Assembly: GCF_964204645.1 (NCBI RefSeq)
Contig: NC_134031.1
Coordinates: 11,534,088-11,598,087 of the forward strand
Reading direction: 5' to 3'
DNA from: Tubulanus polymorphus
Taxonomy: Eukaryota > Animalia > Nemertea
Length of the DNA stretch: 64,000 nt
Shown here: positions 1,475 to 27,500 of the stretch, piece by piece
Position numbering within the stretch: the stretch's first letter is position 1
How the letters are laid out: each line of letters starts with the position of its first letter
The notes under the pieces: generated by a model
Told to the model about the DNA's origin: nothing
What the model saw: only the letters and a program-made list of their open reading frames with translations
The model's database searches: none
Program-made: the position numbers and the translations under genes

Positions 1475-2690
1475 AGTTAGTGTCAGGGTATAAGGTTATA
1501 AGGTTAGGGTTTAGGTTAAGGGTTATAAGGTTAGGGTTTAGGCCTATAGGATTTATATTAGGGTTAGGGTTTAGGGGGTTTGGGTTAAGAGGGTTAAGGT
1601 TTAGAGGGATAAGGTTGAGGGGGTTAGGGTTAAGGGATTATGGTTTAGGGGGTTATGGTTCAGAGGGTTAGGGTTTAGGAGGGTTAGGGTTTAGGGGGTT
1701 AGGGTTTACAGGGTTAGGGTTAAGGGGGTTACGGTTTAGGGTGTTTAGATAGTAAGGATTTAGAGAGTTAAGTGTCTATTCAGTTAGGGTTTAGGGTTTC
1801 GGGGGTTAGGGTTTATAGTTATTTTCGTTCACTATTATTATTAGTGTCTAGAAGATTAGGGTTTATAGGGTTAGGGTTTAGGTGGTTAGGGTTTAGAGAG
1901 TTAGGGTTTAGAGACTTAAGTGTCTATTTAGTTAGGGGTTTCGAGGGTTAGTGTTTCGAGGGTTATGCTTTCAAGGGTTAGGGTTTATAGTGTTAAGGAT
2001 TACAAGGTTAGGGTTCATAGGGTTAGGGTTTAGATGGTTAAGGTTTAGGGGGTTAGGGTTAAGGGGGTTATGGTTTAGAGGGTTAGGGTTTAGAGAGGTA
2101 AGTGTCTATTGAGTTAGGGTTTAGGGGGTTAGGGTTATGAAAGTTAGGGTTTAGAGGGCTCAGTGTATATTGAGTTAGGGTTTAGGGTTAGGGGGTTAGG
2201 GTTAACAGTATAGGGTATAGAAAGTTAAGTGTCTATTGATTTAGGTTTAGGGTTTCGAGGGTTAGGGTTTAAAGAGTTAAGTGTCTATTGAATTAGGGTT
2301 TAGGGGGTTATGGCTTAGGGGGTTATGGTTTAGGGGGTTAGGGTTTAGAGGGTTAGGTTTTAGAGGGTTAGGGTTTCGAGGGTTAGGGTTTCGAAGGTTA
2401 GGGTTTATAGGGTTAGGATTTGGGGGGTTAGGGTCTATTATAAAGAATTAAGTGTCTATTGAATTAGGGTTTAGGGGGTTATGGTTTAGGGGTAAGGGTT
2501 TAGAGGGTTACGTGTTAGAGGGTTAGTGTTTCGAGGGTTAGGGTTTAGAAGGTTAGGGTTTATAGGGTTAGGATTTAGGGGTTAGGGTTTAGAGTGTTAA
2601 GGTTTACAAGGTTAGGGTTCATAGGGTAAGGGTTCATAGGGTTAGGTTTTGAGGGGTTTATTTCATAGGTTTTCAAAAGAGGTTTAGGTT
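1475..2690 (+). repeat. Degenerate telomere-like (TTAGGG/TTTAGGG) interstitial tract
   Basis: Dozens of GGGTTAGGGTTTA variants, G-rich on the + strand, with a recurring AAGTGTCTATT spacer. Confidence 0.9.
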
Positions 2691-3180
2691 TTAACACATA
2701 TATACAAAACACATTAAATCACAAATTATAATAATTTATTTATCTAATTATAAAAATACAACATCACGATTGAATTTTTTTACGTTCAACTTGTTTCACC
2801 ACATTCGGATAACTGATTATTTACTTTATTTTTCCTTTCATATGTTTCACTTTTCAAATTGTTCATCTTTCAAATTGTTCGTTTTCTTTGCCTGAAATAT
2901 TACAATTAAGAATTCTTAATGTAACATTTAAAGTAAATATTTATATCTACATTTCTAAGCAAAAAATAAAACTTACCACGTCCAAATTTACACAATTGGT
3001 CATCTATCTTCAATTTTTTCAATGTATCTCTCATTTCATCGGAAAGATCATTATACTTCCTTTTCTTGAAAGACTTCGATTTTACTTTATTTATAGGCTG
3101 TGTTGTTGTTAACACTTCTCCAAAGCCACATTTTTCCAGCTATTCGAAAATATAGTAACAACGTATCGAAAAATCTAATA

Positions 3181-8449: not shown

Positions 8450-8662
8450 TTGACAATTTTTTTATGTGTTGTGTATGTTGGTTGTTCTAACATAAATTCA
8501 TTTATATCTTTATATTTTTTGTGGGATTATCTTATCTAATTTATCTTGTTTTACTTGACGCCAGATATTTTTGTTAGAAGAATAAGCAACCGAACTCTCA
8601 GGGTTGTAATATAAATTTCTTAAATATTGTTCTTTAGTATTAGGAGTTTTTTTACCACCCAT
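8450..8662 (-). pseudogene. Polinton-type integrase, N-terminal fragment
   Basis: MGGKKTPNTKEQYLRNLYYNPESSVAYSS...FMLEQPTYTTHKK matches the YYxP...QxxYTLHK N-terminal signature of Polinton integrases; truncated before the DDE core. Confidence 0.75.
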
Positions 8663-8692
8663 TTATATATCCTTAATTTTAACTTTATATTT

Positions 8693-9957
8693 CTAATATT
8701 GAATACTATCTAATTGTGAATTTACAATATTTAATTGTGCGTCACATATAATATAAATGTGCATTCTGAAATTTTTGTCTCCTGTTTTCTTTGCCATGAA
8801 TAATTGTATTCCATCTTTAGTGTTCTGTAGTTTTTTCCCAGAACCATGTAATGAATTATCCTCTGTTGTTCTAAAATCTAACCATAACGCGTATTTATTA
8901 CCGGTATAATAATCACTTTGATTAATATTACAATTTTCAGATGATTTTACTTTTTCATTCATAAAATGTTTTCTAATTTCTGGCCATTGATCAATCATTC
9001 TCATTCCTTGACAAAATATTTTATTTGCTATTCCTTCGATAGTTATTTCTACTTTTGTTATTTTAGGATTATAATAATTATCTACCTTTATTGCGCCATT
9101 AGAATATGTTGCAATGGTAAAAAATATTAATATACCTTTAATAGATCTTCTTGAGAAGTTAATATTCTCATTAATTATTTCATCATTTGCATTAATAGTT
9201 ACAGTTTTATATTTATCAATATAATCATATAATAATGAAAATCCTTGATTGTATTGAGTTTGAATTGTGTTAGCAATATTTTCATTAGTTACTGTGTTAT
9301 ATTCTAAACATATATTCGATAATTTATAACCCATATCTTTAACAACGCTAGATAATACAATTTCATTTACAGGAGCAAATTTTATCTCAAATATAATATC
9401 TTCTTGAATTACATATTTATATAAAGGTGCATTATTATTTATCAATTCAAAGTCTAATGGAATTTTATATTTGCTTCCATAAATCTTTTTAATCAAATTA
9501 TCTACGTCATTAGTTACTACTGCATTATTGGCCTCAGATCTTAATTTATTTTGATTTTCTGATTGGATGCCTTGAAATATCATATTATTTCTATTTTCTT
9601 TAGTTAACCATAAATCTTTATAATGCATAAATAAATTATAATCATCTAATGAGAAAACTGTTTCTGGACCAATCTTGATAGTTAATTTTTTAATCAAATA
9701 TCTTCCAAGATTATCAACAACATAATTATTATTATTACCAGTTACTTTTATATCAGCTGATAAATAAATACTATTTGGAACATAAAAAGTATTTTGTGTT
9801 AATCTCGGGATTCTAACATATAAAGTTTCATCAGGATTAAAGTTTCATCAGGATTAATATTAGAAGGGTTATGAGTGATTATATGATGTGATCTTTCTGC
9901 TTTAATAGCATTAGATATTTTACGATTCTTAGAAGGATTGATATAACGCCCACTCAT
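8693..9957 (-). pseudogene. Putative major capsid protein (double jelly-roll), frameshifted
   Basis: 334-aa ORF plus upstream frame MSGRYINPSKNRK...HNPSNINPDETLYVRIP; joined (about 415 aa) if the 17-bp tandem duplication at 9821-9854 is removed. Size, beta-rich pattern and context fit an MCP; fold not verified. Confidence 0.65.
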
Positions 9958-10012
9958 TTATTTAACAAAAAAATTCATCATTAATTTTTTATCATGTTAA
10001 GTTGATATTTTT

Positions 10013-11442
10013 TTATATCATGTTTACTAACCCAAAAATAATTGCACTTACAACTGTAATTAAAAATATAATAATATGTTCAGCAGCAAAGTTAATAATG
10101 TTTCCTGCAGATTTCAATATAAAACCAACAATTGATGCAATAATTCCTGGTAAAGCTGCGGCAGATTTTTTAGATAGTTCCCATAAATAGTTTGCTAATT
10201 TTTTTAAACCATCTTTGACTTTATCTTGTATAGAATTATTATCATTCGGGGGATTATCCGGTTTATTGGGAGTAGGAGTAGATTTCAAAGAATTTGATAT
10301 TGCTAAACCAATTGTTGTAAATAACATAGTTACAGCTGTTAGAATTGAAAGAATTGTGATTCCTTCTAATTTAAATAATAATTTTATTCTATCTTTCAAT
10401 TATATTTCAGAATTATGTTTTATCAACAAATCTTTAAAAATAATTTTTAATCTATTAATATTATAATCATATGATTTTAATAATGATTTAATTTCTTCTT
10501 TTTGTAATTCTAAATTATCTTTTAAATTATTAATTTCTTTTTCTAAACGTAATTCTTTTTGCCTATATTCCATTTCATCAATTACTTGACGATCAAGATC
10601 AGACTTTAATTGTTCTATTTCTTTATTTTTATCAGTTAATTCTCTTTCTAAAGTTCTAATTTTAATATCTCTTATACTTTTATTATGCGCAATTTATCAG
10701 CTTCATTTCTTATACTAATAATTTCTCTAATTGCTTCATCAGAAAATATATTTAAATCTTCTAATTGTTGATCTGTTGCATCAATTAATCCATTCGGTAA
10801 AAGTTTTTCAATTGGAACTTTATTTGATTTAAGTTTACTAGTTTTGGAAGTTATATTCTGTTCAGAAGTTGTTTCTGTTTCTGATTTCTTTTTGATTATT
10901 TCAAATAATTCATTAATTCTTTGTTTAAATACGTCTATATCATTATCAGTTAATTCTTGTATTATAACATCAGTTATTATATTACTATTATTAATTCTTT
11001 TAATTCTATCTGGATCTAAATCACTCAAAGTTGATTTTGTTAATATTTTATTTTTATTGTTTTTATAAGTGATATCAATATAATAATCACCTTTCAAATG
11101 ATAATACCATTTACCATTATCTAAAAATTTTAATTGATCTGCTAAAGGTCCAACGTCTTCATCATTTATGTTAAGTTTAGAATTTTCAATTATACGTTCT
11201 AATTTAGGTATTTTTTTTAAGTTATCTAAATCTTGTTTTACTAAATCTGGGTCTAAATTTTCAGGATTTAATTGTGATTCTGCGTTTTTAATATAATCAG
11301 GTATATTTAAATTATTATTATGTCCTGGCTCATTACCGTCATTAAAACTTGTTTCACTAAAATCAGGTTGTTGTTCATCAGTTATGCCAGGTTCATCAAA
11401 ATTATCCATTCCAATATCTATTCCACCTCCTTCTACATCCAT
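10013..11442 (-). pseudogene. Viral coiled-coil protein with C-terminal hydrophobic/amphipathic helices, split by frameshifts
   Basis: ORFs 10672-11442 and 10013-10399 joined by coiled-coil-like sequence; GITILSILTAVTMLFTTIGLAI and AAALPGIIASIVGFIL segments; TAAATG start. Confidence 0.6.
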
Positions 11443-11459
11443 TTATATAATAAAGAAAT

Positions 11460-12784
11460 TAAAATTAAAAATATAATATTCCTCCTATAACAATTCCTAT
11501 ACAAGTTAAAGCTAATTTAGTATTTTCATGGAATTTATTATCATTATCAGTTTTAATTATTTCATGTTGAATATTATCAGTTTTAATATTTTCTGATGTA
11601 TTATAATCCGGTTTAGAATCATTATTTAATTCAATATTCTTAGTTTTAGTTTCTGTTGATTGAATGTGTTTTTTTAATTTTTTTCACCTTCCATTAATTT
11701 TGGAGCAGTAATAATCTTTTTATTCATATCATTTAATCCAAATGAATTATTTATTGTTGCAGTATTAATTAGATTATTGTAACCAATTATATTTCCCATC
11801 TTTAATACTAAATCATTAGAAATAATTAATAGATTAGGGCTTATACAATAATTTAGTCTTACATGAGATTTATCTAAATAATTTTGATATCTTACAATGT
11901 TTTCTGGAATCGATCTATTTTTATCATTATGAATTGAATCTTCAAATAATACTTTGAATTGTTTCTGCGCATCGAATGAAGTGTTATCATTTCCAATTAT
12001 TGTGGATCTTGTTTCAACTTGCGCACCTAAAATACATATCAAATAAGGTTCTAATAGATTGATTTATTCTTTGTATACCAGCTTTAGTAAAACCTTCACT
12101 ATTTTCTAAAATGAAATAAACCCAACCATTATTATTTTGTTGTTGTATATAATTATAATATTTTGGTAATTCATTCCAATTTAGTGTTCTTATATCAGAA
12201 TTTGTTATTATTTTTCCAAATTCTTTAGTACATAATATTCCTAATCCATCCATTGTACCAATTTTTGCTCTAAAATCTTTATTTGAATTAATATTAAATT
12301 CATTACATATTTTATAAAACTTAGAAAAATTAATATTATTATTCAATTCTTTAAAATATTTTGAACCTGGTAAAGGACATTCTAATTAATCTAATATTAA
12401 TTTTATTTGAAAATAAGTATGAAATCTAAAGAGTGATAACCTCAATGGTAAACTTGGTTTGTTTAAATGATCATTCCAACTAATTCCACATCCTGTTGTT
12501 GCGCAATAAACAGCAAAATTTAATTGGTTCTGCCAATACTTCATATTAGATTTTAATAACCATTGTTTTGCCTCATTTCAATTTTCAAAATTAATTGTAT
12601 ACACATGAAATATATTTTCCATCTTTACGTGAAAATGATTACTTTCAGTAACATAAATATATAAATTAATTAATGAATTTAAAACTTAATTTCTATATGA
12701 AATATCTTTATTAAAATCTATTGCTGGAATATTATATTTAATTGATTTATTATATTGGAAAGCTTTTGGAAAACTATCTACCAT
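11460..12784 (-). pseudogene. Conserved viral protein with C-terminal membrane anchor, disrupted
   Basis: MVDSFPKAF start, WQNQLNFAVYCATTGCG, GFTKAGIQRINQSIRT, ILGAQVETRS, terminal KLALTCIGIVIG; homologue at 53594-54983. Confidence 0.7.
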
Positions 12785-12800
12785 TTATATAATTTAAAAA

Positions 12801-13235
12801 CTAATAATTTATTAATTCTTTTAATAATTTATCTTGTTCTTCAACTGTTATATGACCATTTAAACTTATTATATAATCTAGTGTATTCTTTAATTTATTA
12901 ATTTCTTTTATATTAGTTTTAATTTTTTCTTTATTACTTTTTATATTTAATTTTGAACTTATACCAGTTAAAACACTTGAACTTAATCCTAGTACGCCAA
13001 TTGATATAGCTAAAGGTGTTAATGGACTGAATATTGCTAGAAATGTTATTACAGAACTAATTGTAACCGAACCACTAATAATAAAATAATATATAATTTT
13101 AGATTTTAAATATTTTTTCTTTTTAACTTTTAAATCATTTTCAAATTCTAATATTTGTTTTTCTAAATATGTTTTTAATTTAGTTTTATTTATATAATGA
13201 GGAATGATATCAATATTATCAACTTTATCTTCCAT
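12801..13235 (-). CDS. Viral two-TM membrane protein
   Basis: Intact 144-aa ORF, hydrophobic hairpin IIYYFIISGSVTISSVITFLAIFSPLTPLAISIGVLGLSS; TAAATG start; homologue at 53263-53576. Confidence 0.75.
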   Translation of the reverse strand: MEDKVDNIDIIPHYINKTKLKTYLEKQILEFENDLKVKKKKYLKSKIIYYFIISGSVTISSVITFLAIFSPLTPLAISIGVLGLSSSVLTGISSKLNIKSNKEKIKTNIKEINKLKNTLDYIISLNGHITVEEQDKLLKELINY

Positions 13236-13313
13236 TTATTTAGAAAAAAAATTACTAATTAGTAAACTTATAAGCAACAAATATAACAATAACAGTTCCA
13301 CCTAAAATCCATA

Positions 13314-13676
13314 TTATTTCATATTTCTGGTTTCTTTACTCGGGGTATAATAATCTGATAATTTAGGTTTGTATAGATGTAATTTTTCTTTAGTGGTTAC
13401 CGCGTTATATAAACTCATTGCATCATCAACTGATTGAAAATCTCTATGTGAAATCTTCTGATCATATAATTCCTTGTTAATATAATCCATATAGTTTTGC
13501 CTCTTTTCTCTGTATTCTTCTGCTGCTTTATTGTATTTTTCTAATGCTAAGTTATGTCTTTTTTGTTCTGTTAATGATCCATTTTCATCAATATGCTTAA
13601 ATAAATAACCACCACCAGTAAATGCTGAAGCGTTAACAATTGCAGATCCTATAATAGTTATAATTGCAGAAGCCAT
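13314..13676 (-). CDS. Viral small protein with N-terminal hydrophobic helix and coiled coil
   Basis: MASAIITIIGSAIVNASAFTGGGYLF...EQKRHNLALEK; TAAATG start; a hydrophobic tail in another frame (to about 13255) suggests a late frameshift. Confidence 0.75.
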   Translation of the reverse strand: MASAIITIIGSAIVNASAFTGGGYLFKHIDENGSLTEQKRHNLALEKYNKAAEEYREKRQNYMDYINKELYDQKISHRDFQSVDDAMSLYNAVTTKEKLHLYKPKLSDYYTPSKETRNMK

Positions 13677-13700
13677 TTATTTAGTCAAATAATTACGTAT

Positions 13701-13922
13701 TTATATGGGAGGAATATATTTTTGTTTTTCTAAATAATCAATTGTTAAATTAGATAAAGTAACTGCTAATGTTAATTTCAAGATATCATTTATATCAAAT
13801 CTATCAACATTAACACTTCCCATTTTAAATACGTTTTTTAATACCATTGAATAACCAACAGTTCCAACTGATAGTAAGGCTCCATTATATAAACCAGTTA
13901 TTATCCACTTATTATCACTCAT
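13701..13922 (-). CDS. Viral small hydrophobic protein
   Basis: 73-aa ORF, TAAATG start, two hydrophobic segments. Confidence 0.7.
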   Translation of the reverse strand: MSDNKWIITGLYNGALLSVGTVGYSMVLKNVFKMGSVNVDRFDINDILKLTLAVTLSNLTIDYLEKQKYIPPI

Positions 13923-13925
13923 TTA

Positions 13926-14279
13926 TTAATTAAAAAAATTACTATCTTCAAAATATTTAGTTAACTTATTTATGATTAAATCAACATTTATTTCATTACT
14001 AGTTTCATTTGTATATATTTCAATTATTATTTTTTTAATATCATCGATGATAAAATCTTCATCTAATTCATAAAATCTTAAAGATTCTCTAATTAAATTA
14101 GTAATCTTTTCTACATCTAGAGTTTCTTTATCTATTGTTGTTTCATACTCAAATGTTGTTTCATTAGAAAATGCAATATTTTTGATTTCTGTAATTACAT
14201 CATTAATGTTAAATTTCATTTCTTTCTCACGTTTAAAATCAAATCCAAAACATATACTCGGTCCAACAGTTATATTCAT
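13926..14279 (-). CDS. Viral hypothetical acidic protein
   Basis: 117-aa ORF, TAAATG start, packed between neighbours. Confidence 0.65.
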   Translation of the reverse strand: MNITVGPSICFGFDFKREKEMKFNINDVITEIKNIAFSNETTFEYETTIDKETLDVEKITNLIRESLRFYELDEDFIIDDIKKIIIEIYTNETSNEINVDLIINKLTKYFEDSNFFN

Positions 14280-14295
14280 TTATATAATGAAAAAA

Positions 14296-15117
14296 TTAAT
14301 CTCTACATCTTATAACTAATTCATAAATTACAGGGAAATTATTTAAATCAATTAAGTATCCATTGTGATTTCTTACTTCTAATTTGAAATTATTGAAATG
14401 TGGTATACAAGGTTTAAAATCACATTCAGCTAAATTATAATTTATTTGCCTTCCAAATTGTTTAACATTCTTCAATGGTAAAATATTTAATATACTAGAA
14501 TTACAAATTGTATCTTTATTTGCTTCAAATGTTTTTGTAGGATCAATTAAATTGCAATAAATATAAAAATGTGTAAAAGGTATTAAATTTGATATACCGT
14601 ATATGTTTCCTACAATAATTTTAACTGGATGAATTCCTAACAGTTTAGCAAAAGGTTTTTTTACCAAGTAAGCATGTTTTCTTGAAGGTAAAATAGTACC
14701 AATAAGATTTTCATCATCAAACTTTATTTTAATTTTATTAGAGCTCTCACTTTTTATGAATTTAATATTAAATTTAGAATCACTACCTAATATAATCCGA
14801 GCTTTTCTATTAATTTCTTGCTCTAATGTTTCTAAATTATAAAATCCTGGTGTAAGCATAAGATGAATCCAGTCATGTATAATTTTATCATAATTAAAAA
14901 AGGTTCTATGTTCATTAGTTTTATCTGATACATTATAAAAAGAGTAACATAAACTTATATTAACTAATTTTAAATCAAAACAATTCTTAAATTCTCTATC
15001 TAATTGTATTAGTAAATTATGTGATTTATAATTTGTAAGTTTTCTAGAATCAACAAATATTCTGTATTCTTTTAATTCTACCATTATTTGTAACATAAAA
15101 AAATTACCGCTCATCAC
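14296..15117 (-). CDS. Putative minor capsid protein (penton, single jelly-roll)
   Basis: IFVDSR N-terminus, PGFYN, AKLLGI, FYIYCNLID and C-terminal FKLEVRNHNGYLIDLNNFPVIYELVI, a pattern typical of Polinton/virophage pentons; likely true start at 15084. Confidence 0.7.
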   Translation of the reverse strand: MMSGNFFMLQIMVELKEYRIFVDSRKLTNYKSHNLLIQLDREFKNCFDLKLVNISLCYSFYNVSDKTNEHRTFFNYDKIIHDWIHLMLTPGFYNLETLEQEINRKARIILGSDSKFNIKFIKSESSNKIKIKFDDENLIGTILPSRKHAYLVKKPFAKLLGIHPVKIIVGNIYGISNLIPFTHFYIYCNLIDPTKTFEANKDTICNSSILNILPLKNVKQFGRQINYNLAECDFKPCIPHFNNFKLEVRNHNGYLIDLNNFPVIYELVIRCRD

Positions 15118-15153
15118 TAAAAATTAATTTTGATAAAAATTTTTCCTTAATAA

Positions 15154-16489
15154 ATGGATGAGAAGATACCATGCGAAATTTGTGGTGAACTTCTAAGAAA
15201 AAAGTAATATGGCTCGACATATGAAAAAACATGATGAAAATTATGAACCCCCTAAAATAAACTGCCCAAAATGTAATAAATTATTCTCAAGAAATTATGT
15301 TAAAAAATATTCAGAGAAGTGTAAAATTAATGGCGCAACGGCTAATGTTGATAGTAACGAAAGTAATTGTAATTCTGTTGAAGTTGAACCAGAAATTATT
15401 TGGAAAAGACCTTTCTTATTCTATGACAAGGATAATATAAAAGATCATATCTGCGAGCCTTGTCGAAAAAAATATAACCCTGAAAATATAGAAGATTGGG
15501 AGAATCATCAATTTCGTAAAGTACATATAGATAAAATTGCTAATAAATTTGAAGCAGAATTCAATGAAAGAAAAAATAGTTTATTAGAAAAAATAAAATA
15601 TGTGAAAACGTTACCAGATAATAAAGAAACAGTTGAAAAGTTAGAAAAACAATATAATGAATTAACAAGAAAAACATATTATTGTAAATATTGTAAATTG
15701 ATTATTACAACAAGTAATTCAAATCTACATAATAGAACAATAAAACATAAAGAAAACGTAAGAAAATACCAGGAGCTTAATGAAGATCTATTACCAATAA
15801 ATTATAAACAAAAATGACCACAATGTAATTATGCGACCTTAAGGCAAGAAGGTACTGTGTTATTTTGTAATGAATGTGGATGGCAAAAGAATTTATGGGG
15901 TGAAGAAAAAACTTTTTTGAGAGATTTTCTCATAGAACCAAAATTAAATTATCTAGATGAAATTTTTAAAATATTTTCTATAGAAGATCATACACCAGAA
16001 TATATGCAATGGCTTGAAAAAATGAAAATGATAGAAAATAAAAATGGTGAAATAACTAAAAAAGATATAATAAAAACAATTATTCCATCAACATTTAACA
16101 CAAAACAAAAGAAAATGTATTTATATTTATTATTTAATGATTATTATGAAAAACCTAAATTAACAGAAGAAGATATGGAAAATATAAAAAAAACATTCAA
16201 ACAAATATTAATGTATCATTTGGAAAATAGAATAACAGATTCAATTAATTATGAATTATTTTTAGATAAGATTGTAAATTATTTAAACATCGATATTATA
16301 ATTCTATTTGACGAATTAACAAACAAAAAGAAACAAAGAGAGCGATATGAAATGTGGTACAAGATAGAACTTTATTTAAATGAGAAAAATGAAATGGAAG
16401 AACCTAAACAAATTATACAAGAACAATTAAATGAAAATGAAGAAGCCAATAGTGATTTCGAGTATGATGATATTGATTTTATGTTTTAA
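15154..16489 (+). pseudogene. C2H2 zinc-finger / Zn-ribbon / VLTF3-like late transcription factor fusion
   Basis: ORFs 15209-15817 and 15857-16489 are in frame, split by one TGA that replaces the first Cys of CPQC...CNECG. C-terminus PKLTEE...FKQI...INYELFLDKI...LTNKKK...MWYKI follows the VLTF3 pattern; a 1-nt insertion near 15200 separates the TAAATG start. Confidence 0.6.
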
Positions 16490-19400
16490 TGGCCATAAGG
16501 TAATGTTTTTATACCATCATCAAAAATATGCCTTTTATCATCAAATGGATTCAAACTAGTTTTTTCAACTTCATTAATGTACATCTCGTGATTTTCTGAT
16601 CAATTCATTTTATGTTTCATTACAATTGAGTTATATTAACACTTTATATAATCTTGAAATTCTATATGTTTATCAACCACATGTTTTCTTATTCCTTTTA
16701 ACTTTTTAGCTTCATGATCTTTTGTTCTATAACTATACATTTTACTTCTTATCTCAACAAATTCAATCATTTCATCACCCCCTAATTCATCTTTAAATTT
16801 ACCAGGAATCTTTTTATTATCATTGCTAAATAGTTCATGATCTTTGGGATAATTGCTAAAATCAAAATGATGTTTTAATGTTTTTAAGTCTTTTGTTATG
16901 TCATTTGTCTTGATTTTTAGTATGTAACTGTCAGTATTTTTTGCAATTAATGGAAATCCACAGTTAAATGTACCATCTTCAGTTGATAAATCATAAACAT
17001 AATCTGATGGTTTATATATTTCAAATAAATCTTTAACTTCTTCTGTTAATTCTTTTTCTACATGCCTTAAATTAAAACAATTTGGTTTAGATTTAATTAA
17101 TTCTATATTCATATTAAATCCTAATGAACTGCATAATATATTTAATCCTGATATAGCAACTTTCCTTTCTGTGCGAAGGTTATCTTTTTATCCTTTGTAA
17201 ATTTTTTATTTTAGTGCCATCTGCGGCATAGAATCCAATGAAGAACCACTTTCTTAAATTATTTTTTGCATTTAATACATAATCTGGTACTATCTTTTCT
17301 TTTGTTGAAGTATTACTTTTCACTATTGCATGAATATAGAATTCATCATTATATTTTATAGCAAAATCTTTAGGATTATTTACAAGTATTCTATAAACTG
17401 CTGATGATTTCATAACATCTATGATTTTAAATATTTTATGAGAATAAACTTATTCACAGAATTTCTTAATTCTTTCTAATAATTTCAAATCTTGATTGCA
17501 TAAATACCAACAATATTTATTACCCCAAACATAATTATACACACCTGCTGAACCATCACCCATGAAAAATCCTTTGATAAAATATTCTTTTTCTTCTAAT
17601 GTTTCAGGTTCTATATTATAAATATTATCAATAATTTCATCAAATGATATATGATTCATTCTTTGGAAAAATCTTTTATGTAATAATTCATCTCCAATTT
17701 TTATATCAGTTGGTTTTATTTCATAGCCATTTCGTTTAATTAAACTATGATCTTCTGTAACATCTACAAACCCTAATTTAGTTCTAACTCTATAGATTTT
17801 CTTATTTGTTTTATGTCTAATAATATTCTTTAATTTTATCCATCCATTTCTTGTCCAAACATCCATTAATTCATTTATTTGTATTAATTCTTTTTCATCA
17901 TATGAAATATAACATTCATTTTGTTTTGGAATTATTTCTGAAATTCTTCTTATCAATATTTTATCATTACATTTTAATAATATTGGGGTGTCAGCTGTTA
18001 CAGAATCAAAATATAATATTTCAATATGCTTTTCCCCAAAAAGTGGTTGTAAAACATTATAATAAAAATCAAACATTGATAATTTTGATACTTCTAAAAC
18101 AGTTGAACCAATGAATATAGGTTTATTAAATTTCATTGACGTTCTTTTTAATTTAACTGCTGTTAAATAATCTTCAAATCTTTCCTAAATGTCTAGGACT
18201 TGATTGTAAATGTCTTAATCGTTCAGAATTATTTACTAATTCAATATCATTTCTATTTCTAATATTTTCGCATGTTTTACCATAAAAACTATTATTCATT
18301 AATTTGAAGAAATCTTTTTCAAAATCTGGTTTTGATATGGTTCTCTGTTGAGTATTGAAATCTATATATTTTTCTAACCACTTCGATTGATTAAATTCAA
18401 TATATCTATGTACTTTCTTTAATTTCATTCCTTGTTTTAGATAAAATTTATATTCTATAATAAACAATATAATTGTATTTATTATTTTGAGTAAGTATTA
18501 ATTTTTCTGTAAAAACATGATCTTTCGGTTTTATTTTCTTCTGGTATTCACTTAAATAACTATCATCTACAGTTAAATGTTCTGGGCATTAAGGTAAGTT
18601 TCTTGTTTTAAACTTTATATTTTCAGGATATTCTAAATCAACTACAAAGAAATAACCAATTGGTGCTTCATCTTCTAAACTCATAATTGCGCTTTCCCAA
18701 TTAGTTTTATCATCATTTTCAACTTCTGTTAATATAAAATTTCTATATGGTTGGGGTTGCATCATTGCCCAGCCATATAAATTATTGGCGTCAATATATA
18801 ATAATTTATATTCATCATTTGCTTTAAAATATCTATCTCCCATAACACCACTAATTCCACCTCTAATTGATTTTTCAAATAATAAAACCATATCTGGTTC
18901 TTTTAATAAATCTAATTCTACATTTGTATATTTTAAACCACATTGCCAGGTTAAACCAGGACTAGAGTAGCAATAACAACGATCAACATTAAAATGATTC
19001 AAATTAACTTCTCTAAATTTTTCAAATATGTCAGCCAATATCATAACATCTGATTTTAAATATAAATCAACTAATTCACCATGATTTTTCATCTTAAAAT
19101 GGTTCCAAATATTTAATGTTCTATTAAACACTTCATCTTTCACATACTCCTCTTTTAATTGATCATAAAATTGATCTTTTAATAATTCTGTTACATTAAA
19201 ATCATTGTGTGTTTTATAAAATGAATAAGGAATTGCGCCTTTATATCTCAATAATTTAAAATCTTGTTCATTGGATAATAATATCGAGTTATAACAAAAT
19301 CATTATCAACTAAACTTTTTGATAAATTATCTAATGAACTTGCTAGAAATCTATAAGAATCTAAAAATCTAATGCAACCAAATTGAAATGAAATATAATT

Positions 19401-21511
19401 TTCAGATGTTTTAGGTAATAGTTTAAAATCATATTTTCTTACATTTACGTCATTCATAGCATTATATTCTTCTATTTCTTGATTAATTGCGCCCAATTTT
19501 CCCGATAATTGTTTTGTAAATAGATGGGTATCATAGCCTGATAAATTATGAAATAATATTGGTACGAAATTAACTTTCTTAGCTTGTAAATTGCAATCTT
19601 CTTGAGCAGCTCCACGATATTTTGAATTTAAATGATCATGATCTCTAACTTTTTTATCAAATGAATAAAAACGTTTTTCACAATAACAACAATGAGTTGC
19701 ATAATTAAAATCAATTTCATCTTTTGTCATAACTATTCTTTTATTTTTTGTTTAATAATTTTGCAAAATCACTTTCTAATTCAATCATTTTGTCACAAAA
19801 ATCATTAACTACATTTTCACCTCTAAAAGAAATATATTAACTTTCATATAATTCGGGATAATTTGATTTGATGTAAATTCCATAAGCAGCAGCTCTTTGA
19901 TGAACTTAATTGTATTTATAATTGGTGGGTCTTGAATTATATCTTCATTTAGTTCATTTCCTTTATCCATTGATTTTAATAATTGCTGTTTGTTATATAT
20001 TTCTTTTCTCTCTTGATCAGTTGGAGTTACAAATGGAACAATATTTTTAAATTTATGATTAGTAAATTTCAATTTATAATCTTTTTCTGTTGGCATTATT
20101 AATTTACAAAAATCTTTATTATCACATAATTCTTTATGTTTCAGTAAAGCATTCTCACATCTAAATTTAGATAAATATTTTCTACATAGATAAATTTTAT
20201 TATGGTGATCACTTTCTGTTCTAATGAATAAATCAATTTGTTTTAACCACATATAATGTTCATTTTCATCTTTTTTGTAATATAACAAATCTATAGCATT
20301 TTCATCATCATAATATTCTGTTAAATATAAAGCTTCCAGTGTATAATCTTTAATATTTTCACCTTTTGTCTTTGGTAATTGCATTAATTCGAATACATTT
20401 ATTTTTAAATTATTAATTTTTTCTATTTTGGGTATCATTTTTATAGTTACTGGATATTGATCAATTTTATATAATGTTTCATATTTCCGGTATTTTGTTA
20501 TTCTAAAACTATGTGTTATATCTTCTGTTGGGTGTAAGCAACTAATAATTGACCGTAGAAAACATTTATTATCTTCATTTTGAATATTTATTACTGCTTT
20601 TGTTGTAAATGGTAATTTAATATAAGATGATGCTTTAATATCCTCCTTTTCTGTTGTAAAGTTTGAATCATTTTTAAACATTTTATTACTTTTTGATGTT
20701 TTATTTCTTTTTGTATTATAAACATTTAAATCTAAAAATATAATTTCATTCAATGTTAAGCCAGAACCCTCAAAATATCTTTCTTCAATATGACGTTTAA
20801 ATTCATTAAATATTTTTTCTAATTTCTCTTTTATTTGTGTTTTTGAAATTATTTCTTCAGAGAGTGTTTGAATATTATAATCCATTTTATCTTCTGACTT
20901 TAAAAAACTTACTTTCCCAGAGATACTAATTTTTGGATATTCAACATTGTTATCAAATCTAGTATTTTTTCTATTATTTCATTAAATTTACTATAATCTT
21001 CTATTGTTGTACCTTTAAAAAATCTAAATATAATAGCTGCAGGACCAATTTAACTACGTAATGTTTCTAATATTTCAATTGTATCTTTTATTTCTAGTGA
21101 ATCAATATAATTTCTAACATTTTCCATGTAAGGTTTATTTGAAATGGATTTAGTTTTGGAAGTTGGTTTTTTTACTTTTTGAGGTTTATCATCGAAATAA
21201 TCTTTTCCTAAAACATTATTACTCAAATTTTGATGGTGTTTTTGTGATTCGAGATGTCTATTATAATTCCTTTTTGTTATAAATTCATCACAAACTTCAC
21301 ATTTTATTTCATCCACATTCATATCATCTAATCGTTCTTTTCTTTCATTTGTATTATCTAGTGTTTCAAAATCTATTACATTTTTTATATGATTTGCAGT
21401 TTTTTCATGTCGTGATTTTTGGGATTTATCGATGTATTTTTTACAATATTGGCAATAATATTGATTTTTATTAACATTATTATTTTCTGGCTGGTGTTCA
21501 TTCTCCCCCAT
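16486..21511 (-). pseudogene. polB: Protein-primed family B DNA polymerase with intein, multiply disrupted
   Basis: FHNLSGYD and YLKSDV (exonuclease), YIDANNLYGWAM (A), KLMNNSFYGK (B), YFD/TDS (C), PGKFKDE, RSKMYS, C-terminal FDDKR...TLPYGH*; N-terminal Zn fingers, OTU-like NEDNKCF...HY and EndoVII-like VRDHDH. Confidence 0.95.
16936..18004 (-). mobile_element. Intein with LAGLIDADG homing endonuclease in PolB motif C (about 357 aa reconstructed)
   Basis: Block A SVTADTPILL, block B VDVTEDHSL, endonuclease blocks IKGFFMGDGS and FIGFYAADGT, blocks F/G YVYDLSTEDGTF...LIAKN, then TDS; removal restores YFDTDS. One stop and apparently two 1-nt frameshifts. Confidence 0.95.
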
Positions 21512-21595
21512 TTATTAGGAAAAAAAATTACTTGTGGTGATGAGTGGTGTCTCGACCTTCGACCTCTGGTATGAAACAACACATTTCCTATTACT

Positions 21596-21980
21596 GTTGT
21601 ATATGTTGGTTGTTCTAACATAAAATCATTTATATCTTTATATTTAACTACATTTTGTGGGATTATCTTATCTAATTTATCTTGTTTTACTTGACGCTAT
21701 ATATTTTTGGTAGAAGAATAAGCAACCGAACTCTCAGGGTTATAATATAAATTTCTTAAATATTGTTCTTTAGCATTTCTAGTTTTTTATCCCCCATTTA
21801 TATATCGTTAATTTTAACTTTATATTTTTAATATTGAACACTATGTAATTGATAATTTATGATATTTAATTGCGCATCAGATATAAGATAAATGTGCATT
21901 TTGAAATTTAAACTTTCTTTTTCCTTTTTCATGAATAATTGTATTCCATCTTTTGTATTTTGTAGTTTTTCCCCAGAACC
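21596..21980 (-). mobile_element. Virus copy B fragment: MCP C-terminus plus integrase N-terminus
   Basis: Diverged direct duplicate of 8468-8846. Confidence 0.85.
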
Positions 21981-22059
21981 AATATATTAAAAAATTTCTT
22001 TAACTGTTTTTGGATCTAATACAATAAATTTATTATTTCTATCATAATAGAAATATTAC

Positions 22060-22485
22060 TAGAAATAATAAATTTATTGTATTAGATCCTGAAACAGTTA
22101 AAGAAAATTTAGATAATTGTATAAAAATAGCAATTGATATTTATAAAGGATCAAATACATTATTTGTAATAGAAGATTGTGCACATTTACATGATTCAAA
22201 AATTAGAAAGAGTGAAGTATGTTATTTAGCTTTCTCTGGAAGACATTTGGGATAACGTGGGTTTTAAATCAAAAATATAATTCAATTGTTAAAGATTTTA
22301 GAGAAAACATTTGATTTTTAGTATTATTCTACAAGAAAGATAGAAAATCGATGAAAAATGCGCTTGAGGAAAATGATATTATTCCACATGATTTACATAA
22401 TGAATATATGGATAAATTGAAAAATAACAAAAGATCAAAATTACTATTTCGATTACAACACCCATTTGAATATGAATTCATTTAA
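22060..22485 (+). pseudogene. A32-like (FtsK/HerA) DNA packaging ATPase, C-terminal half
   Basis: Hand translation: TLFVIEDCA (Walker B), LAFSGRHLGI, WVLNQKY, DFRENI; Walker A half missing; frameshift and stop. Confidence 0.8.
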
Positions 22486-23747: not shown

Positions 23748-24073
23748 TTAACCAACAACTTCTAAATCATGATGCCCGTCTTCATTTTTCCCATGGTAAA
23801 TTATTTTAAATCCTTTAAATCTTTTAATTCCTCTGTACTCAATGAAACCTATTTATCAGGTAAAAATACTTTAAATTCCCGCGTTGTACTAACATTACAG
23901 TAAGTTAAATTTGCTGATACTTTCTCTCCATGTTTAGTTTTTATCTTTTCTAATTTTGATATTTTGTGTTCAATTTCATTTGTAACATCGACTAACTTTT
24001 TTATTTCAAATTGTTTTTTTGCTGGTTTTATTCTGTTATTTACTGTTGCTAAGAATGCTTTTCTATTTCCCAT
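23748..24073 (-). pseudogene. Small viral protein, possibly OB-fold ssDNA-binding, next to a terminus ending about 24160
   Basis: TAAATG start; TKHGEKVSANL...FKVFLPDK, continues past one stop; upstream 24070-24160 resembles 21508-21595. Confidence 0.4.
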
Positions 24074-24163
24074 TTATTATGGGAAAAAATTACTTGTGGT
24101 GATGAGTGGTGTGTCGTTCTCTCGTTCTCTGATCTGAACCCAAAATTTCCTAATTACTACGCT

Positions 24164-24521: not shown

Positions 24522-27500
24522 ATGTCTGATGATAACGCGAAACAGATACAGCCGTCTTCGAGCCTGTCGTCAAAGTTAGAGCACCTACGTCGAGCTTGCG
24601 GGCTAAAAAAGGAGCTCTGACTCGTCTTTGTACTCAGGCTACAACATTGATCGCTGCCCGTGGAAGCCGGAGTCAATTGAAAAAACTGCTTTCGGCAGTT
24701 AGTACAGCATATAACGACGTCGTTTTTACCGTGAATGACGAATATACAAGTTTACTGCACACAGATGCCGAAACTCAAGAAGCAGCTGCCTATGTCACTG
24801 AGGTAGAGAAAAGGCACAGTGACACGTCGAACGCGATATTAGGCTACTTGCAGTGTCGAATTAATGATTCTGCGTCTCAAGCGTCATCTGCATCATCGAC
24901 TGCATCTCTAGCCGCAGAGGTCAACGCCAAGGTCAAGCTACTGAAGGTCACGCAACTGCAAAGACGCTTAGAAATTGAACATAGGAAAGAAGCAGCGTTG
25001 AAACACCAACGGATCCTACAGGAAGCGTAAGACGAAGCCGATGTTGCGGTCCTGAAAGCAAAGTTGATGAGCGAAGCTGACGAACTCGAGCGAGAACGAA
25101 AACACGATTTTGATGATGAATTGGTTCCTGACCTGCAAGAGTTTACACAGCCTCAACCGACACTCCCAGATCCGCCAGTGAATCGGCAGCCTCCACCACT
25201 GCTGCCAGACGACTATTGATACCGATTACCACAACCTCAGTCACCAAGACGTCCGCCGAGATCTTCGTTTACGAAGTCGCTACCGAAAATTAAGTTACCG
25301 ATTTTTAATGGTGATGCTGCAGAATGGCCACGATGGGAATCACTCTTTGAAGCATTGGTCCATAGTCAACCGGACCTGAATAACGTTGAGAAGATGACAC
25401 ACTTGCAGTCAGCAGTCACTGGTCCGCCTCAACAGTTGATTTCCGGTATGATGTTTGATGGAAGCCAGTATGATGATGCTTTGAATTCATTAAGAAATCG
25501 TTATGGAAAGGAAGACGACATCGTACGTGCTTGCCTAAAAAAGGTGTTTAGTCATCCGTCACCTAGAATACATGACGTCTCGTCACTCGAAGATTTCCAA
25601 GGTGTGGTAAATTCTACAGTCGTCACGCTGAAGAGCCTAAATTTCATGGAAGATTTTCGCAGCTCAGAGAATCTGCATCGAGTTATAATGAAGCTGCCCT
25701 TAGAGATCAGACGTGAATGGGGAAAACAAGCCGTAGAAATCGAATCCAAGAAGGAACGACCGACTTTACTCCACTTGAATGAATGGTTGGTGTTGCAACT
25801 CCGAGTATCCTTAAACTACTGTGAAGCAACGAAGTCTGTAGATGATCGTCAATCCAGAGATAGCAAGCAACATAGCAAGCCGAGTACATCCAAACCGAGA
25901 TCTGTCTTCTCTACTAACGTCAAGGCTGATGATGAGTGTATCCGCTGTAAAAGTAAACATCCCCTAGCAGAGTGTGACGATTTCAAGAAAAACCTTCCAG
26001 ACGTTAGAGCGCAGCTGGTTGCAGATAATGGACATTGTTTCTCATACCTCTCCAGGGGACACAGATCGCACCACTGCTTGTCAAAGAAATCATGTGGCAT
26101 AGACAACTGTCAGATGTAGCATCACAAGTTACTACATGGAAGCAAGAGAATATACCCTAAGACCACAGTTAAAGCGAAGACTACAGATTATTCGTCACAA
26201 GAGCGCACCGTCACCTTAACTAGAAGACCTACGGCCAATGATGAAGTGTTGTTGCAGGTGGTACCGATTCGAGTGTATGGTAATGGTGAACGATTCTTCG
26301 ATACTTTCGCTATATTAGATCCAGGGTCCCAAACGTCGCTGTGCTGTCGGGAGATAACAGATCGATTAGATGTTTCTGGCGAAGAAAGGACGCTGACGCT
26401 CAATACGATTAATGGTCCAAGTTCGCCGAAAACTGGAATGCTTGTTCAACTCGATGTCGTCCCGCTCTCAGCTAGTTCCGTTCGAAAGAAGATCAAGGTC
26501 GACGAAGCATGGTCCGTGGATGGATTGAAGATTCCACTCAGCCTTACCCGATTGAAATCCAGATTGAATTGGTGTCACGTAGAAGATATAGACATATCTG
26601 TTCCTGGTCATGGTGATGTTCAAGTCCTGTTAGGTGCTAACGTCATTGAAGCGGTTATTCAACATGAAACTAGGATTGGTAGACCTAACCAGCCCATAGC
26701 CGTTCGGACAGATTTTGGTTGGTCACCGACCGGGAGAGCTGGTAATTTCTCTTCATTGGAAGATACGATTCCACGTGTCTACTTTTCCTGGGATGCCACA
26801 CACGAAAATCAACAACTGTCTTCATTGGTTAAAGATTGGTGGCAAACTGAGTCGTTTGGTGTCAAGAACCTGGTACGTGAAAGTCAATCTACCGAAGATG
26901 TCCGAGCAGTTCAGATGTTAGAAGCTAATACTCGATTGGTCAATGGTCACTACGAGACTGGTTTGCTCTGGAAAGATGATGATATTCAACTGCCATGCAA
27001 CCGTTTAAGTGCGATGAAGCGTCTGAAGAATACAGAATGTACCTTAAAGAAGGATCCTGTCAGGGCTGCCGCCTATGCCAAAACGTTCGACGATTACGTT
27101 GAGAAAGGATATTCTCGAAAACTGAGTGAGACTGAAGCTAATCAGCCGAGTCCGAAGAAATGGTACCTTCCACACCATGCCGTTTTTAATCCAAACAAGA
27201 AGAAGATACGAGTGGTCTTTGACGCTGCCGCCTGCTACTCAGGAGTATCACTCAACAACCAGCTGATTTCAGGCCCCAATCTACTTCAAAGCCTGCCTGG
27301 GGTTCTTCTGCGTTTCGGTCAAGAACAAGTAGCTGTGATTGCTGACGTAGAAGCTATGTATCATCAAGTGCGGATAGCAGAAATGGATCAACCAGCATTA
27401 CGTTACTTCTGGAGGAATCTAGAAGACCGTCCACCAGACATCTACCAGATGCTGGTCAACATTTTCGCCGCCCGATGTTCCGCGTCTATCGCTAATTATG

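Follow-up and report, generated by a model that had tools for sequence, protein, structure and literature searches.

A window of 64,000 nucleotides from the genome of the nemertean Tubulanus polymorphus (the whole stretch of contig NC_134031.1 that was analyzed) contains two adjacent open reading frames called as separate hypothetical proteins. The locus raises the questions of (i) whether these frames are pieces of a single gene; (ii) whether that gene encodes, as a first-pass annotation made from the sequence alone had proposed, a hidden homolog of the poxvirus late transcription factor VLTF3 fused to C2H2-type zinc fingers; and (iii) what such a protein would have done for the element that carries it. 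VLTF-3 is a core gene of the Nucleocytoviricota and a signature of giant viruses.

Two open reading frames form one pseudogene

The two frames (15209–15817 and 15857–16489, both table 11 calls) share one reading frame, as had been supposed, and the sole separator between them is a TGA codon (Table 1). Residues 186–546 of a relative, P0002, align with positions 15386–16477 as one tblastn segment that spans this codon (E 2.8e-76). The two frames are one gene, and the two 'hypothetical proteins' one pseudogene. The TGA falls where the first-pass annotation had placed a zinc-ribbon cysteine: it aligns with the first cysteine of the CxxC...CxxC motif in P0002, P0003 and P0004, intact relatives that have Cys at this position and an uninterrupted frame, and the ribbon spacing of the window copy (X-x2-C-x13-C-x2-C) is that of the poxvirus A2L protein.

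Positions 15154–16489 had also been taken as a single frame, yielding a protein of 445 residues once the TGA was repaired. It is not a single frame, because the interval is 1336 bases long, and a second frame break at about 15199–15208 had been overlooked. The frame that starts at the ATG carries the CxxC half of the first C2H2 finger and ends after 17 codons, and the His pair of this finger lies in the next frame, past 15209; since the Cys and His halves are in different frames, the gene must be broken a second time, within an A-run or adjacent to it. The first-pass annotation had also missed the replacement of a His ligand of finger 2 by Tyr. With the frame break, the TGA at the ribbon cysteine and this lost ligand, the window gene carries three lesions; this copy is a pseudogene, unable to make the protein. 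Further first-pass observations were confirmed: the stop codon of the gene shares two bases with the TAA of the converging DNA polymerase gene (complement 16486–16488), the gene is the sole long plus-strand frame outside the minus-strand genes between 8.7 and 21.5 kb, and the helical motifs P.L..E, NY...L.K....L and W.KI are found in the protein.

Table 1. Features of the pseudogene and of the element around it (window coordinates)
Feature	Position	Strand	Remarks
Promoter-like motif of the gene	15135–15156	+	A5 15135–15139, T5 15140–15144, 6-base spacer, TAAATG 15151–15156 over the start codon
First reading frame	15154–15207	+	ATG, 17 codons, TAA (15205–15207); P0002 residues 10–25 match 15157–15204 in frame 1
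Finger 1, CxxC half	Cys codons 15172–15174, 15181–15183	+	In the first reading frame
Frame break, in or beside A-run	15199–15209	+	tblastn frame 1 to frame 2; splits finger 1
Second frame, to TGA	15209–15817	+	Finger 1 His half, fingers 2–4
Finger 1, His half	15218–15232	+	
Finger 2	15263–15322	+	His ligand replaced by Tyr (15308–15310)
Finger 3, JAZ/zf-met type	15452–15526	+	
Finger 4, U1 type	15683–15748	+	
In-frame TGA at first ribbon Cys	15815–15817	+	Alignment to relatives; reads
A2L-type zinc ribbon, (stop)-x2-C-x13-C-x2-C	15815–15877	+	
Helical VLTF3-like domain (predicted)	15893–16385	+	NYELFLDKI 16247–16273; conserved Trp at 16349–16366
Acidic C-terminal tail and TAA stop (16487–16489)	16386–16489	+	Model confidence low; unconserved
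Converging protein-primed family B DNA polymerase (PolB), decayed	16486–21511	−	Six frame segments
Likely double-jelly-roll major capsid protein gene	8693–9957	−	One frame change near 9838–9844
T-run + TAAATG starts of other element genes	9958–21540	−	ATGs 9957, 11442, 12784, 13235, 13676, 13922, 14279, 21511

Intact relatives and other genomic copies

Other copies of the gene were examined in raw reads from the genome of this organism. A Cys codon replaces the stop in 128 of 194 reads; therefore the stop is not conserved in all copies, in line with the first-pass proposal. The TGA is retained in the other 66 (about a third), and is thus common to several copies. At the frame break (15198), a different length keeps the frame open in 150 of 182 reads, and at the Tyr codon of finger 2, 223 of 224 reads differ. 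Marine-metagenome reads matched the gene by short, poorly matching pieces only, and three further sequencing runs (one guessed to be RNA) contained no reads matching it.

Among 1.84 billion representative proteins there were only three matches: P0002 (697 residues, E 2.7e-39), P0003 (446 residues, E 1.1e-16) and P0004 (281 residues, E 8.5e-6). P0002 and P0003 have the same fingers and ribbon within one open reading frame, while P0004 keeps the VLTF3-like module without fingers; the ribbon reads CxxC-x13-CxxC in P0003 and P0004 and CxxC-x12-CxxxxC in P0002. In L001, the intact gene for the 697-residue protein (44–2137, plus strand) abuts an intact PolB of 1336 residues (2138–6148, minus strand), and intact fused orthologs have the same tail-to-tail arrangement with PolB as the window copy. 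A word-indexed homolog search with the C-terminal frame as query gave no match, and with a family profile it returned P0004 only; IMG/VR yielded no relative via the C-terminal domain, a neighboring 273-residue protein, the family profile or the L001 PolB; and sequence searches of the PDB gave chance-level rows only.

That the TGA is no lesion at all, being decoded as Sec, Trp or Cys or leaving two halves that act as separate proteins, is very improbable. The retention of the stop in several copies would fit such a reading, as would P0004, an example of a stand-alone VLTF3-like protein. However, the two intact L001 genes (2033 codons in total) contain no in-frame TGA and write Trp as TGG and Cys as TGT or TGC, the Rfam search gave no SECIS or other match, and translation with table 4 leaves PolB broken; on these grounds we rejected the TGA as a sense or Sec codon. 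Furthermore, the same copy has the frame break, the lost ligand and a PolB in six frame pieces, and the downstream half has no start codon ahead of the ribbon.

A VLTF3-like C-terminal module

The proposed kinship with VLTF3 did not emerge from Pfam, by which the C-terminal 223 residues go unrecognized: at E values up to 10, neither Pox_VLTF3 (PF04947, gathering score 25 bits) nor A2L_zn_ribbon (PF08792) gave a row for the window protein. PF04947 also gave none for P0001, nor for P0002–P0004 at E up to 1, the cut-off at which PF08792 did not match the relatives either; poxvirus A2L controls scored 148–161 bits with PF04947. Three other approaches (a language-model look-up, Foldseek and hhalign) support the kinship. 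With ESM-Atlas features of the same 223 residues, the PF04947 set accounts for 27 of the 30 matches listed, with a top score of 0.96. The AlphaFold model is of medium confidence (pLDDT 67.9, pTM 0.59, about 80 in the core; a single-sequence model, pLDDT 50.6, was too poor for use), and its best Foldseek matches in BFVD are the VLTF3 proteins of an entomopoxvirus (E 7.2e-5) and of cowpox virus (E 1.0e-4, TM 0.57/0.58). VLTF3 or a late transcription factor is named in 17 of the best 30 rows, and three of the five matches with E ≤ 1e-3 are poxviral VLTF3 (poxviral TM 0.48–0.58), in superpositions that are loose (rmsd about 10 Å). Poxviral proteins lead the VLTF3 of other giant viruses by small factors only, and equal length favors them.

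Alignment of profiles by hhalign against 15 poxvirus A2L orthologs, all Pfam-confirmed as PF04947 plus PF08792, gave a probability of 96.5% and an E value of 7.3e-10 over 193 columns. As these orthologs were retrieved with a motif taken from the window gene, which biases the comparison, we deleted the nine columns of that motif, and 80.8% (E 1.3e-5) remained. Reversed alignments scored 17–18 and none of 30 column shuffles exceeded 18.4, whereas the real pair scored 67.2. By these sequence and model comparisons, the C-terminal module is a distant homolog of poxvirus VLTF3. Like vaccinia A2L, it places a CxxC-x13-CxxC ribbon ahead of a helical domain some 170 residues long, with the NY..FLDKI and W motifs common to both and a matching predicted fold; unlike A2L, to which its identity is about 19%, it lies below Pfam detection and is preceded by some 230–330 extra N-terminal residues with four zinc fingers.

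A TFIIB-like or cyclin-like fold, suggested together with the VLTF3 kinship, gained weak support only, from a wide VIA search of the predicted structure. This search was headed by TFIIB, Orc6, cyclins and the Rb pocket at Z 5–6.8, below the level trustworthy for helical proteins (TFIIB chains 6.8, 6.4, 5.8 and 5.5; cyclins 5–6.2), with chain I of the vaccinia polymerase complex at 4.7; chain identities in large complexes were read from entry titles. Foldseek against the PDB found nothing at E ≤ 0.001, with TFIIB chains at E 2–4. The modeled helical part weakly resembles TFIIB and cyclin folds. The order of ribbon, linker and all-helical cyclin-like domain recalls TFIIB, Brf, archaeal TFB and the TFIIB-like part of vaccinia Rap94; unlike TFIIB, however, there is no sequence similarity, Z values below 8 are common for helical folds, and only about one cyclin-sized domain (82–115 residues) is aligned.

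The surrounding endogenous virus

The gene sits in a decayed, multi-copy endogenous virus with a GC content of 24%, adjoining a BEL/Pao retrotransposon. Its PolB is collinear with the intact L001 polymerase (54–92% identity), and one fragment matches PF03175 (E 6.1e-11); the YxDTDS motif is interrupted by the remnant of an intein, about 1 kb long (16938–17963), and the N-terminus bears U1-type zinc fingers. The capsid candidate belongs to a family of 415-residue proteins with 273 matches, whose ESM-Atlas neighbors are viral clusters, some with Capsid_N or Capsid_NCLDV in 10–24% of members; PF16903 gave weak matches to 10 of 15 family members (best E 0.002), and the PDB contains no sequence match. 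Among the traits of a polinton-like virus or Preplasmiviricota-type element, the protein-primed PolB is present and a double-jelly-roll capsid protein is likely. An A32-type packaging ATPase, penton, integrase and protease had no match among the island frames scanned (18 with Pfam, 12 with PHROGs), the other frames carry no annotation, and neither VLTF-1 nor VLTF-2 was detected in the element. Unlike a poxvirus, this is a virus of 13–17 kb with a protein-primed PolB, and Pfam and PHROGs scans of the island frames detected no RNA polymerase.

The zinc fingers

The proposed fusion of a hidden VLTF3-like factor to C2H2-type fingers is supported. Finger 4 passes Pfam zf-U1 (PF06220; 30.3 bits, cut-off 22), and in P0003 the third finger passes zf-C2H2_jaz (26.6 bits, cut-off 22.6). 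For fingers 1 and 2, the C2H2/C2HC assignment comes from ligand spacing and inspection of the relatives only. Pfam and PHROGs scans of the gene gave zinc-finger matches only. The finger region was also tried as a relative of poxvirus A1L (VLTF-2), to which it proved unrelated: hhalign gave a probability of 0.2% (E 0.27) against 12 of 15 poxvirus orthologs, three having been dropped for want of an open reading frame of 130–180 residues; Pfam identity was confirmed for one.

RNA and double-stranded RNA are the better-known targets of U1- and JAZ-type fingers. The protein might have been no transcription factor, its fingers binding RNA or genome ends while it acted with PolB in replication, packaging or the handling of RNA. 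The zf-U1 and zf-C2H2_jaz assignments, weak similarity to ZFa, a dsRNA-binding protein (E 0.015), a similar finger at the PolB N-terminus (36% identity over 42 residues; zf-U1 E 2.4e-7) and the tail-to-tail arrangement with PolB in two genomes all point this way. We nevertheless consider such a role improbable, given a conserved C-terminal module homologous to a vaccinia late-transcription protein and the occurrence of this module without fingers in P0004.

A start-codon motif with the layout of poxvirus late promoters

The A-run, T-run and TAAATG that precede the window gene also precede the orthologous genes of L001 and L002. Within the element, a T-run (about −6 to −13) plus TAAATG occurs at eight of nine gene starts, which were defined without use of the motif; the exception is a long minus-strand gene starting at 15114. 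By comparison, TAAATG is found at 46 of 630 background ATGs (7%; binomial 7e-9), and the pattern T5-N3-10-TAAATG occurs 13 times in the island versus 1.9 ± 1.3 times in 300 dinucleotide shuffles (maximum 6). The motif is present at all three gene starts in L001 and L002, and is kept in the partial copy B. TAA-ATG junctions are common in a compact genome of 24% GC.

Poxvirus late promoters, as described in the part of PMC11980589 drawn on here, consist of TAAAT and then G overlapping the start codon, with a T-rich stretch around −10. The motif of the element matches this layout, which is a new result, and so resembles the promoters that VLTF-3 serves in poxviruses; its own role as a promoter is putative. 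A motif that overlaps the ATG suits a poxvirus-type polymerase better than Pol II.

A predicted virus-encoded initiation factor

We predict, with a probability of roughly 55%, that the intact protein served as the virus's own transcription initiation factor, acting at the T-run/TAAATG promoters. The four fingers would supply specificity for DNA (or nucleic acid), while the zinc ribbon and cyclin-like helical domain would act like TFIIB, docking RNA polymerase, with transcription starting at TAAAT. The gene's own putative promoter is a variant, with an A-run and then a T-run, and may permit first expression; the factor, made early, would then switch on the GTAATTTTTTT-type promoters of PolB, the capsid and the small genes. 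For the polymerase, our best guess is nuclear Pol II of the host, which has been suggested for mriyaviruses, viruses that have VLTF3 but lack a polymerase; that of a poxvirus-like helper is the main alternative. PMC11980589 lists A2L among the late transcription factors and describes vaccinia A2L as required for late-promoter transcription, and mriyaviruses retain VLTF3 without any RNA polymerase (PMC11253617).

The helper's polymerase is central to a second reading, the inference drawn in the first-pass annotation, in which a virophage-like element parasitizes a cytoplasmic poxvirus-like virus and its finger-bearing VLTF3 competes with that of the helper, diverting the helper's polymerase to the genes of the element. 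Mavirus-type virophages occur as many integrated copies, and the genes of virophages such as mavirus carry the late promoter of their giant-virus helper. Similarly, the element is a small virus with a likely double-jelly-roll capsid, has many integrated copies, and shows a giant-virus-type late motif near the start of nearly every gene. This motif has the poxvirus late layout, and because it overlaps the start codon, a Pol II-type leader would not fit; poxviral VLTF3 gives the best fold matches, and the element itself encodes no RNA polymerase. On the other hand, no helper is known or seen in the data, the poxviral lead over other giant-virus proteins is small and length-favored, and the mriyaviruses are a precedent for VLTF3 in a virus that has no polymerase of its own. 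Unlike virophages, which to our knowledge normally carry no VLTF3, the element has a VLTF3-like factor of its own, along with an animal host and a poxvirus-type motif. We regard diversion of a helper as possible, but less probable than a factor serving the virus itself; the TAAATG promoters make it plausible and do not decide the matter.

Comparison with other small viruses and significance

VLTF3 is treated as undetectable outside the giant-virus phylum in the portion of PMC11253617 cited here, which places it in small double-jelly-roll viruses without RNA polymerase, the mriyaviruses (35–45 kb). It is also reported, in the material available from two further sources, in some polinton-like viruses, e.g., the Zephyrvirus clusters VC123/VC126 (10.64898/2026.06.19.733378; PMC8502044). 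The window gene differs from these VLTF3 genes, which were found with standard profiles and for which the excerpts concerned mention no finger fusion. Mriyaviruses replicate with an HUH endonuclease, whereas the window element has a protein-primed PolB (pPolB), and Zephyrviruses had no endogenous examples and no known host, whereas the window element is endogenous. Its genome is smaller than those of mriyaviruses and polinton-like viruses, and it is multi-copy in an animal. Our literature search, which left subscription journals and preprint supplements outside its scope, found no report joining VLTF3, a zinc finger and pPolB or linking VLTF-3 with TFIIB-like, and nothing relevant on TAAATG in combination with polinton.

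The locus presents a VLTF3 homolog, too divergent for Pfam and fused to nucleic-acid-binding fingers, beside a pPolB in a genome that ranks among the smallest known with VLTF3. For annotation, this means that standard profiles miss this VLTF3-like family. One factor and one short motif would make a minimal system for testing the role of VLTF3, and their pairing bears on the origin of the poxvirus late transcription system. It is a tentative prospect that pPolB capsid viruses of 13–17 kb, at some tens to hundreds of copies per animal genome, may run all their genes on a miniature poxvirus late system (T-run/TAAATG plus a finger-armed, TFIIB-like VLTF3); they would then represent either the first virophage-like satellites of a poxvirus-like virus in animals, or evidence that the VLTF3/TAAAT system is older than giant viruses and able to drive a polymerase of the host.

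Structure and lesions of the finger-VLTF3 gene

A single TGA (15815-15817) parts the two open reading frames (ORFs; see the table) of the finger-VLTF3 gene (ATG 15154 to TAA 16489, plus strand), so called because it combines zinc fingers with a relative of the poxvirus late transcription factor VLTF3 (vaccinia A2L). Within the island, an endogenous small DNA virus with a protein-primed PolB, these are the only plus-strand ORFs located outside minus-strand genes. As the first-pass annotation had proposed, the ORFs share one frame and the TGA replaces a zinc ribbon cysteine: one tblastn segment of the related protein P0002 spans the TGA, and in P0002 and two further relatives, P0003 and P0004, the first Cys of the four-Cys ribbon lies at this site. 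Moreover, in P0002 and P0003 the zinc fingers of the upstream ORF and the ribbon and helical domain of the downstream ORF occupy one open frame. The predicted stop codon overlap with the converging PolB was also found, the TAA at 16487-16489 and the PolB stop (complement 16486-16488) sharing 2 bases.

Although the assignment to one gene was thus upheld, two defects had been overlooked. ATG 15154 opens a 17-codon frame that includes the CxxC of finger 1, and the two His of this finger follow after 15209 in the next frame; this change of frame between the Cys and His halves places a break within or next to the A-run. In finger 2, a His ligand is changed to Tyr (codon 15308-15310).

The alternative that the TGA is read as a sense codon or as selenocysteine was rejected: no in-frame TGA occurs in 2033 codons of intact relatives, an RNA family search revealed neither a SECIS nor any other RNA family, and PolB is not restored under genetic code table 4. 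It follows that the TGA is a nonsense mutation; the window copy is an ordinary pseudogene.

Coordinates of features of the island and its surroundings
Feature	Position	Strand	Remarks
Upstream ORF, finger-VLTF3 gene	15209-15817	+	same frame as downstream ORF
Downstream ORF, finger-VLTF3 gene	15857-16489	+	same frame as upstream ORF
PolB	21511 down to 16486	-	six frame segments
PolB intein remnant	16938-18136	-	~1 kb, within YxDTDS motif
PolB N-terminus, U1-type zinc fingers	21050-21511; contig L001, 6148 downward	-	E 2.4e-7
Putative capsid ORF	8693-9957	-	415-aa family, 273 matches, no Pfam name
Partial second copy of element	53260-55138	inverted	83% identity to 11308-13119
BEL/Pao LTR retrotransposon	25355-30596	+	DUF1759, Peptidase_A17 twice, Integrase_H2C2
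TAAATG start	9957	-	putative capsid gene
TAAATG start	11442	-	
TAAATG start	13235	-	
TAAATG start	13676	-	T-run interrupted
TAAATG start	13922	-	
TAAATG start	14279	-	
TAAATG start	21511	-	PolB
TAAATG start	15154	+	finger-VLTF3 gene

Relatives and other genomic copies

With the residues downstream of the TGA as query, an exhaustive phmmer search matched only three clusters among 1.84 billion representatives: P0002 (697 aa, E 2.7e-39), P0003 (446 aa, E 1.1e-16) and P0004 (281 aa, E 8.5e-6). P0004 has the VLTF3 module but no fingers, so that two of the three clusters show the fusion.

In X6, a run of raw genomic reads from the same species (1.9 Gb), read depth across the gene (15100-16600) is about 190-330-fold. 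The majority of these reads are only 90-99% alike, which indicates many diverged copies in the genome, and a variant private to the window copy occurs in one of 224 reads; together, depth, identity and private variant suggest that the diverged copies number in the tens to hundreds. Contrary to the outcome that would have counted against the first-pass annotation, the stop is not conserved in all of them: a Cys codon stands at its position in 128 of 194 reads, and roughly one-third share the TGA. At the frame break, the length differs in 150 of 182 reads, leaving the frame open, while about one-fifth have the break. These unequal fractions mean that the lesions arose at different times. In 223 of 224 reads, the codon that reads Tyr in the window copy is a different one.

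Kinship with VLTF3

The proposed likeness to VLTF3 held in feature, structure and profile comparisons, although not in Pfam, where neither the window protein nor its relatives gave a row for PF04947 (Pox_VLTF3) or PF08792 (A2L_zn_ribbon). By ESM Atlas features, the PF04947 set accounts for 27 of the 30 nearest clusters (top score 0.96, with 219 of 256 features in common). The domain from L001, a metagenome contig with an orthologous gene, was modelled by AlphaFold from a five-sequence alignment (pLDDT 67.9, pTM 0.59). In a viral structure library, Foldseek placed entomopoxvirus VLTF3 (E 7.2e-5) and cowpox VLTF3 (1.0e-4) first, with TM of at most 0.58; among the top 30 rows, 17 were named VLTF3 or late transcription factor, six were nameless and seven had other names.

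For profile comparison, poxvirus proteins were retrieved from IMG/VR using a DNA pattern for the window motif NYxLFLDKI. This yielded proteins of 224-232 aa, and Pfam recognized Pox_VLTF3 and A2L_zn_ribbon in all three tested. Aligned by hhalign to 15 poxvirus proteins, the finger-VLTF3 family scored 67.2 (probability 96.5%, E 7.3e-10) across 193 columns that begin at the ribbon and end at the C-terminal Trp; reversed controls scored 17-18 and 30 column shuffles no more than 18.4. Because the motif had served for retrieval, its nine columns were deleted on both sides, which left a probability of 80.8%, E 1.3e-5 and a score of 41.6. The ribbon is spaced as in A2L, CxxC-x13-CxxC. The protein is thus a distant VLTF3 homologue that fails Pfam membership.

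Among solved structures, Foldseek found no match for the helical domain model. A structure search independent of Foldseek was headed by TFIIB chains (Z 6.8, 6.4, 5.8, 5.5), followed by Orc6, cyclins C/F/H/A/K, the Rb pocket and chain I of the vaccinia polymerase complex, all of them cyclin folds. These Z values lie in the range that, according to the tool, helical proteins reach by chance, so that a TFIIB-like shape of the modelled domain is a lead only.

That the fused fingers are of the C2H2 kind was borne out: finger 4 passes zf-U1 and finger 3 of P0003 passes zf-C2H2_jaz (both Pfam), and the spacing of fingers 1 and 2 is the classical one. Kinship of the finger region with poxvirus A1L (VLTF-2), whose identity was checked, was rejected on the basis of hhalign.

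A promoter-like motif at gene starts

Inspection of upstream sequences revealed that TAAATG overlaps start codons, with a T-run ahead of it (from about -6 to -13). Of nine starts established by homology or by the length of the ORF, eight have this motif (see the table); the sole exception, 15114, begins a long minus-strand gene (273 aa). Since 46 of 630 island ATGs follow TAA, the binomial probability of eight in nine is 7e-9. The motif also precedes 12784, 23231 and 24073, and occurs at both L001 genes and at the gene of L002, another contig with an ortholog. The composite T5-N3-10-TAAATG appears 13 times in the island, versus 1.9 +/- 1.3 (maximum 6) in 300 dinucleotide-preserving shuffles, and 18 times in the whole window, 15 of these in the two element copies. 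The three finger-VLTF3 genes have in common a variant in which an A-run is followed by a T-run, whereas PolB and the structural genes carry GTAATTTTTTT; this difference in sequence suggests two promoter classes.

A review on gene expression in poxviruses (PMC11980589) gives TAAAT plus a following G, overlapping the start codon, as the layout of late promoters; ten bases upstream these have a conserved T with further T residues around it. A2L is among the late transcription factors listed there.

The element and its surroundings

The island (~8.3-24.2 kb) has 24% GC, versus 33-47% in its flanks, and nearly all its genes are on the minus strand. The tail-to-tail arrangement of finger-VLTF3 gene and PolB is common to the window and L001 (21% GC), in which an intact 697-aa finger-VLTF3 gene adjoins an intact 1336-aa PolB. 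The latter has no insert at the site of the window's intein remnant, which was identified by Intein_splicing (E 7.9e-5) and a LAGLIDADG-like stretch. The N-terminal PolB fingers are similar to finger 4 of the finger-VLTF3 protein (36% identity, 42 aa); the replication protein and the predicted transcription protein of the element therefore share one kind of finger.

The ORF at 8693-9957 may encode a double-jelly-roll capsid protein: the clusters neighbouring it in the Atlas are viral, and a minority of the members of some of them have NCLDV-type capsid domains. Capsid_N matches weakly in 10 of 15 family members. Relatives of this gene (P0064-P0126; 37-39% identity) lie on 0.2-8 Mb contigs in ENA assemblies, so that more distant kin are probably endogenous in other eukaryotic genomes. 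In the island ORFs that were scanned, Pfam and PHROGs recognized neither an ATPase nor an integrase nor an RNA polymerase. The 273-aa gene (14296-15117, minus strand), which has no family match, diverges from the finger-VLTF3 gene, with which it shares a 38-bp A5T5 palindromic intergenic region. A small protein (12801-13235, minus strand) has two predicted membrane spans and a weak SLATT_fungal match (E 0.0026); SLATT genes appear in maps of polinton-like and MELD viruses (10.64898/2026.06.19.733378, PMC8502044).

Two sequences 13.1 kb apart (8467-8846 and 21595-21981) form a 380-bp direct repeat with 88% identity. Upstream of PolB, a further putative capsid-gene 3' fragment (21831-22043) lies beside a 120-bp palindrome (21991-22110), and the right edge of the island has a duplicate of the PolB promoter and start (24069-24158). 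These features suggest that the stretch 21.6-24.2 kb represents either part of a second unit, rearranged, or the junction of a tandem or circular form. No VLTF3-like gene is present in the inverted partial copy, but two T-run/TAAATG starts persist there (53594, 54999). One composite motif each also occurs in further AT-rich patches, at 46-50 kb (47294) and at 55.9 kb (55934), both on the minus strand. On the right, the island adjoins a BEL/Pao retrotransposon; such elements are not known outside animals, and on this ground the host was taken to be an animal.

Proposed function and significance

The intact protein is predicted to be the element's initiation factor at T-run/TAAATG promoters, in which the ribbon and cyclin-like domain would work as TFIIB does and the fingers would provide specificity. 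As a first guess, the polymerase would be host Pol II, because mriyaviruses, thought to be nuclear, keep VLTF3 without any viral polymerase (PMC11253617). A promoter overlapping the ATG suits a poxvirus-type polymerase better, so that supply by a poxvirus-like helper virus, though less likely than not, keeps some weight.

VLTF3 in small viruses is already in print, as PMC11253617, PMC8502044 and 10.64898/2026.06.19.733378 attest. In the main texts of open-access papers and preprints, we found neither the finger-VLTF3 fusion, nor its occurrence in a 13-17 kb protein-primed PolB element endogenous in a likely animal, nor the TAAATG promoters. The interest thus lies in the finger-VLTF3 family rather than in the window copy.
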